From assembly GCF_054482595.1 (NCBI RefSeq), contig NZ_CM137008.1: a DNA stretch of 64,000 nt; one strand, written 5' to 3'. This document shows, in pieces, positions 4,328 to 37,289 of this stretch; position 1 is the stretch's first letter; each line of letters opens with the position of its first letter. Under the pieces are notes generated by a model, which ran no database searches, was not told where the DNA came from, and was given only the letters and a program-made list of their open reading frames with translations. The position numbers and the translations under genes are program-made.

Positions 4328-6727
4328 ATGAAGCTAACCGATGCGGATAATGCCGCCGATGGCATTTTTTTCCCCGCCCTTGAGCAAAATATGATGGGTG
4401 CGGTGTTAATTAACGAAAATGATGAAGTGATGTTTTTCAACCCCGCCGCAGAGAAGCTCTGGGGGTACAAACGTGAAGAAGTCATTGGCAATAACATTGA
4501 TATGCTGATTCCGCGGGATTTGCGTCCTGCGCATCCTGAATACATTCGTCATAACCGTGAAGGCGGTAAAGCGCGCGTCGAGGGGATGAGTCGGGAGCTG
4601 CAGCTGGAGAAAAAAGACGGCAGTAAAATCTGGACCCGTTTTGCGCTATCAAAAGTGAGCGCCGAGGGGAAAGTTTATTACCTGGCGCTGGTACGGGATG
4701 CCAGCGTAGAAATGGCGCAAAAAGAACAGACCAGGCAATTGATTATTGCCGTTGACCATCTCGACCGACCGGTGATTGTCCTCGATCCGGAACGCCATAT
4801 TGTGCAGTGCAATCGCGCATTTACCGAAATGTTTGGTTACTGCATTAGCGAAGCCAGCGGTATGCAGCCCGATACACTCCTGAACATTCCTGAATTCCCT
4901 GCCGATAACCGCATTCGTTTACAACAGTTGCTATGGAAAACCGCCCGCGATCAGGACGAATTTCTGCTGTTGACGCGCACCGGTGAAAAAATCTGGATTA
5001 AAGCTTCTATCAGCCCGGTTTATGACGTGCTCGCGCATCTGCAGAACCTGGTAATGACCTTCTCGGATATCACCGAAGAACGGCAAATCCGCCAGCTTGA
5101 AGGCAATATTCTCGCCGCCATGTGCAGCAGCCCGCCATTTCATGAAATGGGGGAAATCATTTGTCGTAATATCGAATCTGTTCTCAACGAATCGCATGTT
5201 TCGCTGTTCGCACTGCGCAACGGGATGCCGATACACTGGGCGTCATCTTCCCACGGTGCAGAAGTTCAAAATGCGCAAAGCTGGTCAGCGACCATTCGTC
5301 AGCGTGATGGCGCGCCTGCGGGGATCCTGCAAATTAAAACCTCGTCAGGAGCAGAAACCAGCGCCTTTATCGAACGCGTGGCAGATATCAGCCAGCATAT
5401 GGCCGCGCTGGCGCTGGAACAGGAAAAAAGCCGTCAGCATATTGAACAACTCATCCAATTTGATCCGATGACCGGTCTGCCAAATCGCAATAACCTGCAC
5501 AATTACCTCGATGACCTGGTCGACAAAGCCGTCTCTCCGGTGGTGTATCTCATCGGTGTTGACCATATTCAGGATGTGATTGATAGCCTTGGCTATGCGT
5601 GGGCCGATCAGGCATTGCTGGAAGTGGTCAATCGCTTTCGTGAAAAACTCAAACCGGATCAGTATCTCTGTCGTATCGAAGGTACGCAGTTTGTCCTCGT
5701 GAGCCTGGAAAACGACGTCAGTAACATTACCCAAATCGCCGATGAGCTACGGAATGTGGTCAGCAAGCCGATAATGATTGACGATAAACCCTTCCCGCTT
5801 ACCTTGAGTATTGGCATCAGCTACGACGTGGGTAAAAACCGCGATTACCTGCTCTCCACTGCTCACAATGCAATGGATTATATTCGCAAGAATGGCGGTA
5901 ACGGCTGGCAGTTCTTCAGCCCGGCGATGAACGAAATGGTAAAAGAGCGTTTGGTTTTAGGCGCAGCGCTGAAAGAGGCGATTAGCAATAACCAACTGAA
6001 ACTGGTTTACCAGCCGCAAATCTTCGCAGAAACGGGTGAACTGTACGGCATCGAAGCCCTTGCTCGCTGGCACGATCCCCAGCATGGTCATGTGCCCCCT
6101 TCACGGTTTATTCCTCTCGCAGAAGAGATTGGTGAAATCGAAAATATTGGGCGCTGGGTCATCGCGGAAGCTTGCCGTCAGTTAGCAGAATGGCGTAGCC
6201 AGAATATTCATATCCCGGCGTTATCCGTGAACTTGTCGGCGCTGCACTTTCGCAGTAATCAACTGCCTAATCAGGTGTCTGATGCAATGCAAGCCTGGGG
6301 TATTGACGGCCACCAGCTGACGGTGGAAATCACGGAAAGCATGATGATGGAACACGATACCGAAATCTTTAAGCGCATTCAGATCCTGCGTGATATGGGC
6401 GTGGGTTTATCGGTAGATGATTTTGGCACGGGCTTTTCCGGATTATCCCGCTTAGTCAGTCTTCCGGTAACGGAAATCAAAATTGACAAAAGTTTTGTCG
6501 ATCGTTGTCTGACGGAAAAACGCATCCTTGCCTTACTTGAAGCCATTACCAGCATTGGGCAAAGCCTCAATTTAACCGTCGTGGCGGAAGGCGTCGAAAC
6601 CAAAGAGCAATTTGAGATGCTACGTAAGATCCACTGTCGAGTTATTCAGGGATATTTCTTTTCCCGCCCCCTACCCGCCGAAGAAATTCCAGGCTGGATG
6701 AGCAGCGTGTTACCGCTGAAAATCTGA
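4328..6727 (+). CDS. dosP: c-di-GMP phosphodiesterase DosP (PAS heme sensor, GGDEF-like and EAL domains)
   Basis: ORF 4304-6727; start placed at MKLTDADN to give 799 aa; EAL-domain motifs in C-terminal half; an in-frame start at 4304 is also possible. Confidence 0.9.
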   Translation: MKLTDADNAADGIFFPALEQNMMGAVLINENDEVMFFNPAAEKLWGYKREEVIGNNIDMLIPRDLRPAHPEYIRHNREGGKARVEGMSRELQLEKKDGSKIWTRFALSKVSAEGKVYYLALVRDASVEMAQKEQTRQLIIAVDHLDRPVIVLDPERHIVQCNRAFTEMFGYCISEASGMQPDTLLNIPEFPADNRIRLQQLLWKTARDQDEFLLLTRTGEKIWIKASISPVYDVLAHLQNLVMTFSDITEERQIRQLEGNILAAMCSSPPFHEMGEIICRNIESVLNESHVSLFALRNGMPIHWASSSHGAEVQNAQSWSATIRQRDGAPAGILQIKTSSGAETSAFIERVADISQHMAALALEQEKSRQHIEQLIQFDPMTGLPNRNNLHNYLDDLVDKAVSPVVYLIGVDHIQDVIDSLGYAWADQALLEVVNRFREKLKPDQYLCRIEGTQFVLVSLENDVSNITQIADELRNVVSKPIMIDDKPFPLTLSIGISYDVGKNRDYLLSTAHNAMDYIRKNGGNGWQFFSPAMNEMVKERLVLGAALKEAISNNQLKLVYQPQIFAETGELYGIEALARWHDPQHGHVPPSRFIPLAEEIGEIENIGRWVIAEACRQLAEWRSQNIHIPALSVNLSALHFRSNQLPNQVSDAMQAWGIDGHQLTVEITESMMMEHDTEIFKRIQILRDMGVGLSVDDFGTGFSGLSRLVSLPVTEIKIDKSFVDRCLTEKRILALLEAITSIGQSLNLTVVAEGVETKEQFEMLRKIHCRVIQGYFFSRPLPAEEIPGWMSSVLPLKI

Positions 6728-6740
6728 CAAATTCCTCTCG

Positions 6741-6760
6741 CCCGCACTCGCGGGTTTTCA
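6741..6760 (+). terminator. Rho-independent terminator after dosP
   Basis: cccgcactcgcggg hairpin followed by ttttc. Confidence 0.65.
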
Positions 6761-6924
6761 TTTAACGTGACACTGTCACTTAAATACTGTGATTTCAGCT
6801 ACGATTCCGGGAGATTCCTTCCTTAACTTCCCCTCTTGCACCAAAACTGCACTACGCTGCACAAATGTTGATCAAAAGTTAAAAAATATAACTTTAAGCC
6901 AGCATTCTGGCGCTTATCCCGGCA

Positions 6925-6940
6925 TGGCATGAGATCTGCA
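6925..6940 (+). promoter_or_regulatory. Candidate sigma54 (-24/-12) promoter for the ddpX operon
   Basis: TGGCATG-N4-CTGCA matches the TGGCACG-N4-TTGCW consensus with GG/GC spacing of 12, about 45 bp upstream of the ddpX ATG; ddp is known to be nitrogen (NtrC) regulated. Confidence 0.55.
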
Positions 6941-6984
6941 TAAGCGGAAAGCGCAGCAATTTTTGTCTTATACAGGAACCGTTT

Positions 6985-7566
6985 ATGTCGGATACCACCG
7001 AACTGGTTGATTTAGCCGTGATCTTCCCTGATCTGGAGATCGAATTGAAATACGCCTGCGCTGATAACATCACAGGTAAAGCTATTTATCAGCAAGCGCG
7101 TTGTCTGTTACACAAGGATGCGATTACCGCGCTGGCGAAAAGTATCAGTATCGCCCAGCTCTCAGGCTTACAACTGGTGATTTACGATGCGTACCGCCCA
7201 CAACAAGCACAGGCGATGTTGTGGCAAGCCTGCCCAGACCCGCAATATGTTGTTGATGTGACGGTCGGTTCTAATCACAGCCGTGGCACGGCGATCGACC
7301 TGACGCTTCGTGATGAGCACGGGAACATCCTCGATATGGGCGCAGGGTTCGATGAAATGCACGAGCGCTCCCATGCCTATCACCCTTCCGTCCCGCCCGC
7401 CGCTCAGCGCAATCGCCTGTTGCTGAATGCGATAATGACTGGTGGCGGTTTTGTCGGTATCTCCAGCGAATGGTGGCACTTCGAATTACCCCAGGCAGCG
7501 AGTTACCCACTGCTCGCTGATCAATTCACCTGTTTTATATCCCCTGGCACACAGCACGTCAGTTAA
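6985..7566 (+). CDS. ddpX: D-Ala-D-Ala dipeptidase DdpX
   Basis: 193-aa ORF; first gene of the ddp cluster by synteny. Confidence 0.9.
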   Translation: MSDTTELVDLAVIFPDLEIELKYACADNITGKAIYQQARCLLHKDAITALAKSISIAQLSGLQLVIYDAYRPQQAQAMLWQACPDPQYVVDVTVGSNHSRGTAIDLTLRDEHGNILDMGAGFDEMHERSHAYHPSVPPAAQRNRLLLNAIMTGGGFVGISSEWWHFELPQAASYPLLADQFTCFISPGTQHVS

Positions 7567-7579
7567 TCAGGAAACTGTC

Positions 7580-9130
7580 ATGAAAAGATCGATATCGTTT
7601 CGTCCTACATTGCTCGCGCTCGTCCTTGCCACAACTTTCCCGGTTGCGCACGCCGCCGTACCGAAAGATATGCTGGTGATTGGTAAGGCCGCCGATCCAC
7701 AAACCCTCGACCCGGCGGTAACAATAGATAATAACGACTGGACGGTGACCTACCCGTCTTATCAGCGGCTGGTTCAGTACAAAACGGACGGTGATAAAGG
7801 CTCAACCGACGTTGAAGGCGATCTGGCGAGTGGCTGGAAAGCGTCTGACGATCAAAAAGAGTGGACGTTCACCCTGAAGGACAATGCTAAATTTGCCGAT
7901 GGCACACCCGTCACTGCCGAAGCAGTAAAACTCTCTTTTGAGCGGTTACTAAAAATCGGCCAGGGGCCAGCAGAAGCATTTCCCAAAGATTTAAAGATTG
8001 ATGCTCCCGACGAACATACGGTGAAGTTTACCCTTAGCCAGCCATTTGCACCGTTCCTCTACACGCTGGCGAATGACGGTGCATCCATTATCAATCCGGC
8101 GGTGTTAAAGGAACATGCGGCGGATGATGCCCGCGGCTTCCTCGCGCAAAATACCGCCGGTTCCGGACCATTTATGCTGAAAAGCTGGCAAAAAGGTCAG
8201 CAATTAGTTCTGGTGCCAAATCCGCATTACCCTGGCAATAAACCGAACTTTAAGCGAGTATCGGTAAAAATTATTGGTGAAAGTGCCTCCCGTCGCCTGC
8301 AGCTCTCCCGTGGCGACATTGACATTGCCGATGCGCTGCCGGTGGATCAACTCAACGCCCTGAAGCAGGAAAATAAAGTCAATGTGGCAGAGTATCCGTC
8401 ACTGCGCGTCACCTATCTGTATCTGAATAACAGCAAAGCGCCACTTAATCAGGCGGATCTGCGGCGGGCCATTTCCTGGTCTACCGATTATCAGGGCATG
8501 GTTAACGGCATTCTGAGTGGTAACGGAAAACAGATGCGCGGCCCGATTCCGGAAGGCATGTGGGGCTACGATGCGACGGCAATGCAATACAACCATGACG
8601 AAACGAAAGCCAAAGCTGAATGGGATAAAGTGACGAACAAACCCACCAGCCTGACGTTTCTCTATTCTGATAATGATCCGAACTGGGAGCCTATTGCTCT
8701 GGCGACACAATCCAGTCTCAACAAGCTGGGCATCAATGTGAAGCTGGAAAAGCTGGCGAACGCCACCATGCGCGACAGAGTGGGTAAAGGTGATTACGAC
8801 ATTGCGATTGGCAACTGGAGTCCGGATTTTGCCGACCCGTATATGTTTATGAATTACTGGTTTGAGTCAGACAAAAAAGGTCTGCCGGGTAACCGCTCGT
8901 TCTATGAAAACAGTGAGGTCGATAAGTTACTGCGCAATGCGCTCGCGACCACCGACCAGACGCAGCGTACCCGGAACTACCAGCAGGCACAGAAAATCGT
9001 CATTGATGACGCTGCTTATGTGTACCTGTTCCAGAAAAACTACCAACTGGCGATGAACAAAGAGGTGAAAGGCTTTGTGTTCAATCCCATGCTGGAACAG
9101 GTCTTCAATATCAATACCATGAGTAAATAA
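7580..9130 (+). CDS. ddpA: Periplasmic dipeptide-binding protein DdpA (ABC transporter)
   Basis: ORF 7442-9130; start placed at MKRSISF, which is followed by a signal peptide (…PVAHA); family 5 substrate-binding protein features. Confidence 0.85.
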   Translation: MKRSISFRPTLLALVLATTFPVAHAAVPKDMLVIGKAADPQTLDPAVTIDNNDWTVTYPSYQRLVQYKTDGDKGSTDVEGDLASGWKASDDQKEWTFTLKDNAKFADGTPVTAEAVKLSFERLLKIGQGPAEAFPKDLKIDAPDEHTVKFTLSQPFAPFLYTLANDGASIINPAVLKEHAADDARGFLAQNTAGSGPFMLKSWQKGQQLVLVPNPHYPGNKPNFKRVSVKIIGESASRRLQLSRGDIDIADALPVDQLNALKQENKVNVAEYPSLRVTYLYLNNSKAPLNQADLRRAISWSTDYQGMVNGILSGNGKQMRGPIPEGMWGYDATAMQYNHDETKAKAEWDKVTNKPTSLTFLYSDNDPNWEPIALATQSSLNKLGINVKLEKLANATMRDRVGKGDYDIAIGNWSPDFADPYMFMNYWFESDKKGLPGNRSFYENSEVDKLLRNALATTDQTQRTRNYQQAQKIVIDDAAYVYLFQKNYQLAMNKEVKGFVFNPMLEQVFNINTMSK

Positions 9131-17665: not shown

Positions 17666-17718
17666 AAAAATGGCACCTTATAAAGCGCCATTTGAAACTG
17701 ATGACAAACGCAACATTG

Positions 17719-17830
17719 CCTGATGCGCTACGCTTATCAGGCCTACACGTTCACTGCAATCTATTGGATTTGAACGGTTTGTAGGCCGGATAAGGCGTTC
17801 ACGCCGCATCCGGCATGAACAAAGCCTACG
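17719..17830. repeat. BIME with two REP palindromic units
   Basis: gcctgatgcgctacgcttatcaggcctac and gtaggccggataaggcgttcacgccgcatccggca, typical E. coli REP sequences. Confidence 0.85.
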
Positions 17831-17844
17831 TTGTCTACAATATG

Positions 17845-17873
17845 AAAATGGCGCTTCTTATAGCGCCATTTTC
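17845..17873. terminator. Bidirectional hairpin terminator between yddM and fdnI
   Basis: aaaatggcgct…agcgccatttt inverted repeat flanked by A/T runs on both sides. Confidence 0.6.
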
Positions 17874-17893
17874 AGCTTAAAGTTCAAAAGAGA

Positions 17894-18547
17894 TTATATC
17901 CCTTCTTCACTCTCTTTTTTCGCTTCTGCCTTCTCGATTTCACGATACCAGCGTGGATGGTGTTTCTTCGCCCAGCGACGGCTCACCTTCCCTTCGATCA
18001 TCCCTTTAATCGATCCTTTCACCCAAAATGCCATATACATATGGATCAGGATGGCGTGGATCAGGATGATACCCGCAGCCGCGTGGATCAGCAGGCTATA
18101 ACGGACAACCTGCATCGGGAAGTACTGCGCAAAGTACGGACGCCAGATAATCACCCCGGTCACCAACAGCACGAAAATCATGCTCATGATCGACCAGAAC
18201 ATCATCTTTTGCCCGGCGTTGTACTTACCGACATCCGCCACTTTGTGCTCATTGCCTTTTAATACTTCGACAATGTTCAACAGCCACGGAATATCTTTCT
18301 TATCCGGGATGTTGTGATGCACAAAACGCACAAACATAAACATCAGTGCGACGAAAATCGCAATGCCGAAGAATGGGTGCAAAATACGTCCCATCTGCGG
18401 CGTACCGAAGGTTTGCGTCAGCCATTGCAGCGTCGGGAAGAAGAACGAAATCCCGGACAGCGCCACCAGGAAGAAGCAAATCACCACGGTCCAGTGACAG
18501 GCGCGATCAATAAATTTGGTGCGCACAATCATTTTCGACTTACTCAT
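17894..18547 (-). CDS. fdnI: Formate dehydrogenase-N gamma subunit (cytochrome b556) FdnI
   Basis: 217-aa product from [10 protein letters not shown] within ORF 17894-18589; multi-TM; 8-nt overlap with fdnH stop. Confidence 0.9.
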
Positions 18548-19424
18548 GATGATCCTCCTCGTCATCGTCCACTTCCTTATTCGGGCCAATACCGATGTAG
18601 TGGAAAATCAACCCGGCAAAAGTGGCAATAAAGCCAGCCGCTGCCAGCGGTTTCAACGCGCCTTTCCACAGGCTTACCGAGGTGTCGATCTTCGGATCTT
18701 TCGGCAGACCGTGATACAGCTCCGGCTGATCGGCGTGATGCAGCACGTACATAACGTGCGTACCACCGACCCCTTCCGGGTTGTAGACGCCAGCATGTTC
18801 GTAACCACGCGCTTTCAGTTTCGCCACGCGCTGTTCCGCCAGCTCCAGCATCTCCTTCTTGGTGCCGAAGTGGATAGCCCCGGTCGGACAGGTTTTCACA
18901 CAAGCCGGTTCCTGGCCGACGCTGACGCGATCGACGCAGAGCGTGCATTTATATACCCGGTTATCCTCTTTGTTGAGGCGCGGAATATTAAACGGACACC
19001 CGGCAATGCAGTAACCACAGCCGATGCAGTTTTCCGACTGGAAATCGACAATCCCGTTAGCGTACTGAATGATTGCACCAGCAGACGGGCACGCCTTCAG
19101 GCAGCCGGGATCTTCACAGTGCATACAGCCGTCTTTACGGATCAGCCACTCCAGCTTGCCGTTCTGTTCGGTTTCGCTAAAGCGCATCACCGTCCAGGAC
19201 TTGGCGCTCAGATCGGCGGGGTTATCGTAAACCCCGACGCAGTGCCCCACTTCATCACGGATGTCGTTCCACTCCGAACACGCCACCTGACAGGCTTTAC
19301 AGCCGATACAGGTGGAAACGTCGATAAGTTTTGCGACTTCTGCTTTGTAATCACGCACCTGAGAAGGCGGCGTGATGGAGTTAGTTGCGGACCTTTTGAT
19401 AATGTCCTGCGTTTCCATAGCCAT
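18540..19424 (-). CDS. fdnH: Formate dehydrogenase-N iron-sulfur beta subunit FdnH
   Basis: 294-aa ORF with several CxxCxxCxxxCP ferredoxin motifs. Confidence 0.95.
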
Positions 19425-19436
19425 CTGTTCGCCCCC

Positions 19437-22400
19437 TTACGCCTTCTCGATGTTGACTAAGAACGCTTTATATTCCGGCGTTTGCGAGTTTGCATCACCG
19501 ACATTCGGCGTCAGAGTGTTAGCGATATAACCTTTACGCGCGACACCCTCAAAGCCCCAGTGGATTGGAATACCCACCGTTTCAACCTGCTGACCATTTA
19601 CATTCAGTGGTTTCAGACGACGCGTTACCACAGCCACCGCGCGGATAAAGCCACGCTTGCTTGAGACAGTGACACGATCGCCATTATTAATGCCTTTCGC
19701 CGCCGCCAGCGTTTCGCTGATTTCCACAAACTGTTCCGGCTGAGCAATTGCGTTGAGCAATGCGTGCTTGGTCCAGGTGTGGAAGTGCTCGGTCAGACGA
19801 TAGGTCGTACCCACATACGGGAACTGCTCTTTTTTACCCATCCGCAGTGCGTCTTGTTCATACAGACGAACAACCGGGTTAGACACCACGTTCGGATGCA
19901 GCGGGTTAGTGCCCAGCGGCGTTTCAATCGGCTCGTAGTGTTCCGGGAACGGACCTTCCGCCATTTTGTTGATGGCAAACAGGCGTCCCATCCCTTCCGG
20001 CTGCATGATAAACGGCCCGGTTGGCGTACCCGGTGCGGCATTGCCGAAGTCAGGAATATCGTTACCCGTCCACTTGCTGCCGTTCCACTGGATCAGCATC
20101 CGTTTCGGATCCCACGGTTTACCGTTGATATCCGCCGAAGCACGGTTGTACAGCACGCGACGGTTGAGCGGCCACGCCCAGGCCCATCCCAGCGTATTCC
20201 CCAGACCGGACGGGTCGGAGTTATCGCGGTTAGCCATCTGGTTGCCCTGCTCTGTCCAGCTACCGGTGTAGATCCAGCAAGAAGATGCGGTTGTACCGTC
20301 ATCACGCAGATGCGCAAAGCTACTCAGCAACTGACCTTTCTTCGCAATCAGCACGCCATTAGCATCATAGAGATCTTCCAGCGCATAGCCGTTGTTCTCT
20401 TTAGCTACTTCGTCAGATTGCGGTTCGTGCGGCTGCTTGTAGTTCCAGCTCATCTTCATCAGCGGTTCTACGCCTTTACCACCTTCGGCCTGGTACAGCT
20501 CGCGCAGGTGATGGTAGATACCCGCCAGAATTTCACCGTCGTTACGCGCTTCGCCCGGCGCATCCTGACCTTTCCAGTGCCACTGCAGCCAGCGACCGGA
20601 GTTAGCAATAGAACCATCTTCTTCAGCAAAGCAGGTCGAAGGCAGACGGAATACTTCAGTCTGAATAGACGCCGGATCGACATCGTTCGACTCGCCGTGG
20701 TTCTGCCAGAAGGTTGAGGTTTCAGTCACCAGCGGATCGATAACCACCATGTACTTCAGCTTGCTTAGGCAGCTCACCACTTTGTTTTTGTCCGGGAAGG
20801 ACGCAACCGGGTTAAAGCCCTGGCAGAAATAACCGGTGACTTTGCCTTCATCCATCATGTTGAAATACTTGATGACGTCGTAGGTCTGGTCCCACTTCGG
20901 CAGCCAGTCATAGCCCCAGTTGTTCTCTTTCTGCGCGGCATCGCCATAGAAAGATTTCATCAGGCTAACGAAGAACTTCGGATAGTTGCTCCAGTAGTTC
21001 ACCTGACCAGCCAGCGTCGCTTTCGGCGTGTTCGCTTCCAGATACGACTGCAAATCAACCTGTTTTTCTGACGGCAGCGTCAGATAACCTGGCAGGCTGG
21101 TAGAGAGCAGACCTAAGTCAGTCAGACCCTGAATGTTGGAGTGACCACGCAATGCATTCACGCCGCCACCGGCCATACCCATGTTACCGAGCAGCAACTG
21201 GATCATCGCCATAGTACGGATGTTCTGCGCACCCACGGTGTGCTGCGTCCAGCCCAGCGCGTACAGGAAGGTGGTTGTGCGATTCGGTGCGCTGGTGGAG
21301 GCCAGCACTTCACACACTTTCAGGAAGTCGGCTTTTGGCGTACCACAGATGTTTTCAACAACGTCCGGCGTGTAGCGGGAAACGTGCGCTTTCAGCAGGT
21401 TCCACACACAGCGCGGATGAGTCAGTGTTTCATCGCGTTTCGCATAGCCGTTTTCATCGAACTGATAGTTCCAGGACGATTTATCGTATTGCCGTTTTTC
21501 AGCGTCGTAGCCGCTGAACAGACCGTCTTCGAAAGCAAAATCATCACGCACCAGCAGGCTGGCGTTGGTGTAATGCTTAACGTATTCGGCGTTGATTTTG
21601 TCGTTTTCGATCAGGTAGCGCAAAACGCCAGACAGGAACGTAATGTCCGTACCGGAACGAATAGGTGCGTAAATATCCGCCACAGAAGCGGTACGCGTAA
21701 AACGAGGATCGACAACGATCAAGGTTGCATCGTTGTTGTTTTTCGCTTCCATCGCCCAGCGGAAACCGACGGGATGCGCTTCAGCAGCGTTACCGCCCAT
21801 TACCATTACGACGTTAGCGTTTTTGATATCCACCCAGTGGTTGGTCATCGCACCGCGACCAAATGTTGGAGCAAGACTTGCTACCGTTGGTCCGTGTCAG
21901 ACGCGCGCCTGGTTGTCTACCGCCAGCATCCCGAGGGAGCGGGCAAATTTCTGTGTCAGCATCCCGGTTTCGTTGCTGGCACCGGAGGCACACAGCATAC
22001 CGGTAGAAAGCCAACGGTTTACCGTTACGCCCTGCTCGTTCTTTTCAATAAAGTTAGCGTCACGGTCAGCTTTCATCAGCTTTGCAATACGGGAGAATGC
22101 TTCTTCCCAGCTAATGCGCTGCCATTTGTCAGAACCTGGCGCACGATATTCCGGGTAGCGCAGACGGTTTTCGCTGTTGACGTAATCCAGCAAACCGGCC
22201 CCTTTTGGGCACAGCGCACCACGGCTTACCGGATGATCCGGGTCACCTTCAATGTGATAAATCGCTTCTCTGGCGTTTTTCGCGCCATCACCCAGGCTAT
22301 ACATCAATAGCCCGCAACCTACGGAACAGTATGTGCAGGTGTTACGGATCTCTTTAGCGCGTAATAATTTGTAGTTTCGCGCCTGAGCCAGTGCTTGCTT

Positions 22401-22484
22401 CGGGGCAAAGCCCAATGCCGCTACCGTTGTTCCAGCCATACCGCCCGCGCAGATTTTAAAAAATTGTCTGCGACTGACGTCCAT
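19437..22484 (-). CDS. fdnG: Formate dehydrogenase-N alpha subunit FdnG (selenoprotein; in-frame UGA at 21897-21899 read as Sec, codon 196)
   Basis: Track ORFs 21897-22484 (Tat signal RRQFFK, stops at TGA) and 19437-21848 are in the same frame and together give 1015 aa; molybdopterin oxidoreductase family. Confidence 0.9.
21855..21899 (-). other. Selenocysteine UGA codon and adjacent SECIS-like hairpin in fdnG
   Basis: TGA (plus-strand tca at 21897-21899) followed on the mRNA by a stem ggtagcaagtcttgctcc; FdnG is a known Sec enzyme. Confidence 0.7.
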
Positions 22485-22548
22485 TGCTTTCCTCTTTTTT
22501 CAGGGGTATTACTGCGCGAGGAAACTAACAGTAAAATTCTGAATCTTT

Positions 22549-22562
22549 TTGCGCGAAATCAA
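22549..22562 (-). promoter_or_regulatory. Candidate FNR half-site pair in the fdnG promoter region
   Basis: TTGCG-N4-ATCAA resembles TTGAT-N4-ATCAA, about 65-80 bp upstream of the fdnG start; fdnGHI is known to be anaerobically induced. Confidence 0.4.
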
Positions 22563-22715
22563 AAAGAACACGTGTTTGCCACAAAATAATCCGCCTGCGC
22601 AAATTGACCTACCTCAATAGCGGTAGAAAAACGCACCACTGCCTGACAGGCCAGTTAAAAAAATGCTATAAAATTCAGCTTAATTTTTAACGGCAAGAGA
22701 GACAAAACAGCGAGC

Positions 22716-36848: not shown

Positions 36849-37289
36849 GATTACGCTCCTTTTGAAAGATGTCAGTAAAATTAACACACATTGTGAATGT
36901 CGTATGTCCGGTGATGCGTTTTTACGACAATAATGCCTGCTTGAAATTGTAGATATTTGCACTACACCCTTTTAAATAAAGCACCAACAAATCGTCAACT
37001 TGCAGAACATATTCTTCTGCCTACATACCATTAAGAAAACATCAAGTTCCCGACTTGCCAATTTATTAACGCCCATTATAGACGCTGAAACAAGCTACGG
37101 ACAAAGGAGATGCCAAAATTACCGGCAATGCAGAAAAACTCAACGAACCATGGCTCTTTACCACAGCAGCCGGGGTTGTTTGGGACCGACTTCCGACAGC
37201 AGATCCCGGTGGGCCTGCCACCATCTCTTCACAAGTTTATGCTTATTACATGCAAAACGTCCCGTTTTGCATCTTTGTGCCTACGGCAC

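Follow-up and report, generated by a model that had tools for sequence, protein, structure and literature searches.

The triplet at 21899..21897 on the minus strand of the window (the whole 64-kb stretch of E. coli DNA analysed here, 64,000 nucleotides of contig NZ_CM137008.1) is, with a probability of about 98%, the UGA that specifies selenocysteine 196 (Sec196) of the formate dehydrogenase-N alpha subunit FdnG, and it is followed within the coding sequence by a SECIS hairpin of 45-55 nt. The codon itself, the open reading frame, identity to the K-12 gene, the placement of the SelB determinants, and a constraint acting at the RNA level were all observed directly. Nothing about the feature is new; it has been known since 1991, and the element matches that of K-12 base for base. 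The first report of the fdnG UGA as a Sec codon is credited to Berg et al. (1991) in PMC13188914.

Reading frame, operon, and the identity of codon 196

A mechanical listing of ORFs on the minus strand returns one of 195 aa at 21897..22484, closed by a TGA, and another of 803 aa at 19437..21848 in the same frame. The first ATG of the 803-aa ORF is located at 21848 and the frame is already open from 21896 onward, so the two ORFs are parted by the TGA alone. Translation of 22484..19437 (minus strand) as a single frame yielded 1016 codons (3048 nt), confirming the proposal of the sequence-only reading that the two ORFs join into a 1015-aa protein. The sole internal stop is the TGA at codon 196 (window 21899..21897; local sequence GCG CGC GUC UGA CAC GGA CCA), 3′ of which the frame is open over 819 codons. 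The gene and the features read from its translation are as follows:

19437..22484, minus strand: fdnG, alpha subunit of formate dehydrogenase-N (1015 aa, one in-frame UGA, TAA as terminal stop)
21897..21899, minus strand: UGA codon 196, Sec196, a molybdenum ligand (sole internal stop; K-12 alignment; 1KQF)
22455..22475, minus strand: Tat (twin-arginine) export motif S-R-R-Q-F-F-K, FdnG residues 4-10 (read from the translation)

The naming of the gene as fdnG, also made in that reading, holds at both the protein and the DNA level. With Cys put at the stop, the joined protein matches TIGR01553, the NCBIfam equivalog model for formate dehydrogenase-N subunit alpha, at 1621.3 bits (cutoff of 814.2) over residues 2-1014, and several E. 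coli strains carry an annotated fdnG with 100% nucleotide identity to the window gene. Of the 5426 complete E. coli genomes, 5425 contain a match to the gene (at least 80% of its length, 95-100% identity). Relative to K-12 MG1655, DNA identity is 98.7%, with 39 nucleotide and 6 amino acid differences (window to K-12: D295N, F342L, A366E, N401D, G493D, and A666S); all of the differences lie outside gene nt 540-677 and away from the recoding site. Chain A of PDB entry 1KQF (nitrate-inducible formate dehydrogenase) is matched over its full length, residues 1-1015; this structure is reportedly that of Jormakka et al. 2002. PMC3636253 refers to a Tat signal peptide in FdnG, and the four Cys residues of the [4Fe-4S] set given there (C50, C53, C57, and C92) are all present in the translation. 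Separately, the part of the window between 30000 and 50000 is 100% identical to E. coli strains THO-010, SM107, W619, and XH990.

Two further genes of the operon lie downstream on the same strand:

18540..19424, minus strand: fdnH, iron-sulfur beta subunit, directly after fdnG in the operon (TIGR01582, 482 bits, cutoff 335)
17894..18547, minus strand: fdnI, cytochrome b gamma subunit, final gene in the operon (NF007558, 487 bits, cutoff 339)

For fdnI, the formate dehydrogenase-N gamma model scored 487 bits versus 268 bits for NF007924, the other model of formate dehydrogenase cytochrome b556 gamma subunits. The annotations of strain XH990 and K-12 likewise name the two genes fdnH and fdnI, and the neighbours are also those of K-12, with yddG upstream and fdnH, fdnI, and yddM downstream. 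The locus is therefore fdnGHI at its K-12 chromosomal position, and not fdoGHI. A scan for sigma-70 promoters upstream of fdnG (22485-22750) found no site. The fdnG promoter is activated by FNR and NarL. No sel gene and no tRNA gene were found within the 64-kb window; among 5426 complete E. coli genomes, 5425 carry selA-selB.

The sequence-only reading had placed Sec at position 196 by reference to K-12, and the comparisons with K-12 and with 1KQF agree with this placement. In K-12, the sole internal stop of fdnG, as well as of fdoG, is likewise a TGA at codon 196, and the internal TGA of fdhF is at codon 140 within the common motif ARV-U-HGP. Chain A of 1KQF has X (a non-standard residue) at 196, aligned to the substituted Cys. 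The 69 nt around the UGA are identical between the window and K-12 fdnG. All 113 distinct homologous sequences listed have a TGA as well, the search pattern itself having required UGA. Published work on E. coli identified the peptide V-U196-HGPTVASLAPTFGR by mass spectrometry, never found Cys at position 196, observed that translation of fdnG and fdoG halts at codon 196 without Sec-tRNA(Sec) (selC mutant), and named the three formate dehydrogenases as the only E. coli proteins in which UGA is decoded as Sec (PMC3636253). The peptide reported there is identical to the window sequence.

These data bear directly on the possibility that the TGA is a true stop, which would make fdnG a pseudogene or leave two genes encoding 195 and 803 aa. 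Two ORFs are indeed what a mechanical listing yields, and both fragments are on record as separately called proteins in public databases; even so, a true stop is scarcely credible at a position where K-12, whose full-length selenoprotein was crystallised, carries the same TGA. The gene is maintained at 95-100% identity in 5425 of 5426 genomes, 819 open codons follow the TGA, and RefSeq annotates a single CDS. Moreover, the TGA is kept, with covarying RNA downstream, in homologues from several phyla, and full-length FdnG with Sec196 has already been reported, the K-12 peptide being identical (PMC3636253). A sequencing error at the TGA was also considered and rejected.

The SECIS hairpin and its conservation across bacteria

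The RNA immediately 3′ of the UGA contains a complete match to a bacterial SECIS model, within which a full hairpin and an apical hairpin can be delineated:

21844..21902, minus strand: SECIS element, Rfam RF01989 (SECIS_3), model positions 1-59, the whole model
21852..21897, minus strand: full hairpin, lower and upper helix (minimum-free-energy fold; pair counts in 66 sequences)
21868..21885, minus strand: GGUAGCAAGUCUUGCUCC, predicted apical hairpin for SelB binding (nt +15 to +32, with the U of UGA as +1)

The SECIS_3 match scored 84.3 bits (gathering score of 63; E = 2.9e-19, or 1.4e-18 over the whole window) and is one of only two Rfam matches above the gathering score in the 64-kb window; its 59 nt are identical to K-12 fdnG and fdoG. 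The stem-loop that had been proposed from the sequence as a bacterial SECIS is thus recognized as such by the covariance model, with SelB determinants at their published positions. The span originally proposed, 21855..21899, takes in the UGA and nearly the whole element, the fold reaching to 21852 and the Rfam model to 21844. The lowest pair of the full hairpin uses the A of the UGA.

The SelB determinants have been defined in fdhF and comprise a 17-nt apical hairpin (nt 15-31) located 11 nt from the UGA, together with U17, G23, and U24 (PMC8659212, a review of the fdhF work). With the U of UGA taken as nt 1, the window sequence is UGACACGGACCAACGG-U17-AGCAA-G23-U24-C-UUGCUCC, with 11 nt between the UGA and G15, the start of the apical hairpin. 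This hairpin folds as ((.(((((...))))))), the bulged U17 (21883) is unpaired in every fold, and the apical loop consists of G23 (21877), U24 (21876), and C25 (21875).

As the sequence-only reading had expected, the RNA directly 3′ of the UGA folds into a hairpin; the stability of this hairpin, in contrast, is no better than that of shuffled sequence. The minimum free energy was -11.9 kcal/mol over the 45 nt originally proposed and -14.6 kcal/mol over 56 nt, and z-scores against dinucleotide shuffles were -0.08 (56 nt), -1.18 (45 nt), -1.44 (48 nt), -1.90 (40 nt), and -2.06 (the 18-nt apical hairpin). Thermodynamics alone would not pick out this site, and folding energy was rejected as a discriminating criterion (five spans, z from -0.08 to -2.06). 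Since the hairpin is no more stable than shuffles, the lack of a stable hairpin, which had been named as evidence that would count against the site, is a weak refuting test. Three features do go beyond chance: the match to the covariance model, the compensatory changes found at synonymous positions, and the frozen choice of synonymous codons in the loop. The evidence for a SECIS is carried by comparative data rather than by stability.

Homologous sequences were collected by a pattern scan (GTNTGACAYGGNCCNACNGTNGC, one genome per species), which yielded at least 120 stretches and which by design fixed the UGA and part of the 5′ arm in every homologue collected. Among the matches listed, 115 of 116 readable stretches encode ...DNQARV-stop-HGPTVA...; a Streptomyces locus (L055) was excluded as a chance pattern match without an FdnG-like reading frame. 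The matches listed span Enterobacterales, Pseudomonas, Stutzerimonas, Burkholderiales, Xanthomonadales, Mesorhizobium, and Desulfuromonadota, as well as metagenome-assembled genomes of Acidobacteriota and Actinomycetota. Aligned together, the window and the 115 loci among the matches listed comprise 66 distinct 59-mers.

Across these 66 distinct sequences, drawn from the matches listed, the apical helix is 99.4% paired, and sliding the partners out of register lowers pairing to 26-50%. Changes on both sides are found in two of the seven apical pairs, at wobble positions: among the matches listed, pair 21-33 (alignment columns) is GC in 52 sequences, AU in 8, and GU in 6, and pair 24-30 is AU in 46, CG in 18, and GC in 2. 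None of 500 shuffles reached the observed covariation score. Columns 21, 24, 30, and 33 are the third-codon positions of Val201, Ala202, Leu204, and Ala205, which places the covariation at the level of RNA and not of protein. Columns U20, G26, and U27, corresponding to the bulged U17 and the loop G23-U24, are invariant in all 66 sequences. Codon 203 is the source of A22-G23-U24; it is AGU in all 73 cases where it encodes Ser and GGU where it encodes Gly, and Thr200 is ACG in 112 of 113 (both counts among the matches listed); Ser183, located outside the element, uses at least four codons.

This pattern of conservation also weighs on a second possibility, namely, that the UGA is read through without the Sec machinery, a near-cognate tRNA inserting Trp or Cys while the hairpin serves as a mere roadblock that slows termination. 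A hairpin of unexceptional stability would be compatible with such SelB-independent read-through, and the sequence alone would allow generic effects of RNA structure. The conserved nucleotides, however, are the specific SelB contacts U17, G23, and U24, and their conservation extends beyond mere pairing. In addition, Cys has never been found at position 196, the selC mutant stops there (PMC3636253), and selAB are universal in E. coli, leaving SelB-independent read-through with a very slight chance of being correct. Decoding of the UGA as Sec is the preferred reading here.

Related formate dehydrogenase genes and the lower helix

K-12 fdnG (b1474) is the same gene, sharing the codon number, the fdnGHI operon, and the yddG and yddM neighbours; its SECIS is identical to that of the window over 69 nt, with only strain-level variation elsewhere in the gene. 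Its paralogue fdoG, encoding the formate dehydrogenase-O alpha subunit, has a UGA at the same codon 196 and differs in its locus, its regulation, and its overall sequence (74.7% DNA and 76.9% protein identity). Against this background, one long block is shared:

21832..21902, minus strand: 71-nt block identical in window fdnG and K-12 fdoG (the longest identical run of the gene pair)

The block starts 3 nt before the UGA, coincides with the SECIS, and continues about 20 nt past the hairpin; the next-longest identical run between fdnG and fdoG is 36 nt.

The third gene, fdhF (formate dehydrogenase-H, Sec140), is the experimental model for SelB binding. Its sequence, UGACACGGCCCAUCGG-U17-UGCAG-G23-U24-C-UGCACC, resembles the window in having CACGG.CC after the UGA, in placing U17 and G23-U24 equally far from it, and in closing the apical stem by G15-G16 paired to CC. 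While fdhF has a 4-nt loop (GGUC) and a 17-nt hairpin, window fdnG can form an extra A22-U26 pair, which reduces the loop to 3 nt (GUC) and lengthens the hairpin to 18 nt. The two genes also differ in the lower helix and in the sequence of the 3′ arm.

A homologue with Cys in place of Sec was identified on E. coli plasmid pN96-1, which carries an IS-flanked fdnGHI-like operon with 70% amino acid identity. In this homologue the aligned codon is TGT (Cys), and the peptide HGPTVAALAPTFGRGAMT is retained; at the place of the apical hairpin its RNA reads CGUUGCUGCUCUUGCACC, and the apical hairpin sequence is lacking. Its SECIS_3 score is 44.7 bits, under the gathering score of 63. Having neither the UGA nor the apical hairpin and scoring below threshold, the pN96-1 homologue shows that the SECIS features go with the UGA. 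At the same time, the 44.7 bits that a Cys-type homologue retains show that about half of the window's Rfam score derives from coding conservation. The Rfam E-value was consequently rejected as pure RNA evidence, given this score for a sequence without UGA; the model's evidence for the SECIS itself consists only of the roughly 40 bits above 44.7 and of the passing of the threshold.

The lower helix is less clearly defined than the apical one. The Rfam consensus for it fits GC-rich lineages, which form a 7-bp GGCCC/GGCCG stem, and imposing this pairing on the window or on enterobacterial sequence gives two non-standard pairs, A-G and A-C. The minimum-free-energy lower helix (C14-G43, C13-G44, A12-U45, and G11-C46 in alignment columns, with two bulges) is shifted by one base and has standard pairs where the Rfam consensus gives A-G and A-C; in two Oxalobacteraceae sequences, U12-A45 is found. 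Over the 66 sequences, pairing in the lower helix is 86.2% under one register and 83.9% under the other, neither being clearly ahead, and the register is ambiguous on this account. Unpaired bases between nt 4-14 and nt 32-41 cut read-through by only about 25% (PMC8659212). It is conceivable, though rather unlikely, that the lower helix of enterobacterial fdnG and fdoG is shifted by one base relative to SECIS_3 and that the 71-nt block has been kept by gene conversion or by a constraint beyond SelB. If true, neither the shifted register nor such a cause of the 71-nt block would change the nature or the role of the element.

Decoding and consequences for annotation

SelB binding, Sec insertion, and termination in sel mutants may be carried over to the window by analogy, from published work on the identical K-12 sequence. 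On this basis, SelB with GTP and Sec-tRNA(Sec) would bind the apical hairpin (nt +15 to +32), recognizing U17 and G23-U24. The approaching ribosome would melt the lower helix, bringing the UGA into the A site with the apical hairpin positioned at the mRNA entrance. Sec-tRNA(Sec) would then be delivered by SelB in competition with release factor 2, allowing translation to proceed to the 1015-aa protein. In the catalytic subunit, which is exported by Tat to the periplasm, Sec196 would become a ligand of the molybdenum cofactor.

The expectation from the sequence that automated callers would split or truncate the gene was borne out in part. In the RefSeq/PGAP annotations of strain XH990 and K-12, fdnG is a single 3048-nt CDS, whereas split fragments are on record elsewhere: separate proteins matching the 195-aa fragment exactly occur on at least 1000 contigs, and those matching the 803-aa fragment exactly on 194 contigs. 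One of the two fragments carries a wrong name in public protein databases.

One of three E. coli genes with a UGA that specifies selenocysteine, fdnG is split by callers blind to recoding, and it is for annotation quality only that the site matters. Combining an above-threshold model match, synonymous covariation, and frozen loop codons with an unremarkable folding energy, it provides a clean positive control for a true bacterial SECIS.

A cysteine homologue of FdnG on plasmid pN96-1

An fdnGHI-like operon is carried by the 198-kb E. coli plasmid pN96-1, and its FdnG-like protein shares 70% amino-acid identity with FdnG of the window; the 181-nt probe had 25 plasmid matches in total.

L128, NZ_JBXULY010000002.1, 4464-9060: fdnGHI-like operon, flanked by IS elements

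At the position where FdnG of the window has selenocysteine, the plasmid operon encodes cysteine (TGT). The SECIS apical hairpin is absent from this operon, and the homologue scores 44.7 bits against the Rfam SECIS_3 model, under the threshold.

A deposited copy of the 195-aa N-terminal fragment

One deposited copy of the N-terminal fragment of FdnG, EFN8991448.1 (P0004; 195 aa), bears the name "sulfate ABC transporter substrate-binding protein," which is a misannotation added to a split fdnG gene call.

Elements in the surrounding DNA

Several naRNA4 and ES036 matches, all under the gathering score (38.2 bits for naRNA4), lie between fdnI and yddM. These families correspond to REP elements, so the interval has the appearance of several REP-type palindromes clustered together. 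Strain annotation of E. coli XH990 places a pseudogene and a gene upstream of yddG, with corresponding ORFs listed in the window (region ~23856-25501). The hypothetical gene in the last line of the list adjoins an island of RHS core protein and VgrG.

17703-17880, both strands: naRNA4 and ES036 matches
17693..17668 (-): terminator-like hairpin, directly beyond the end of yddM, a convergent gene
23856..24146 and 24170..25501 (+): ORFs corresponding to the XH990 yddL pseudogene and leucine-rich-repeat protein gene
XH990, L001 2984-4629: porin pseudogene yddL (C-terminus missing) and leucine-rich-repeat protein gene
37117-37222 (-): group-II-D1D4-2 (RF01999) match, 49.2 bits versus a gathering score of 36
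E. coli THO-010, position of the RF01999 match: ~590-nt gap without annotation, between pptA and a hypothetical gene

The 37117-37222 match probably marks a fragment of a group II intron.
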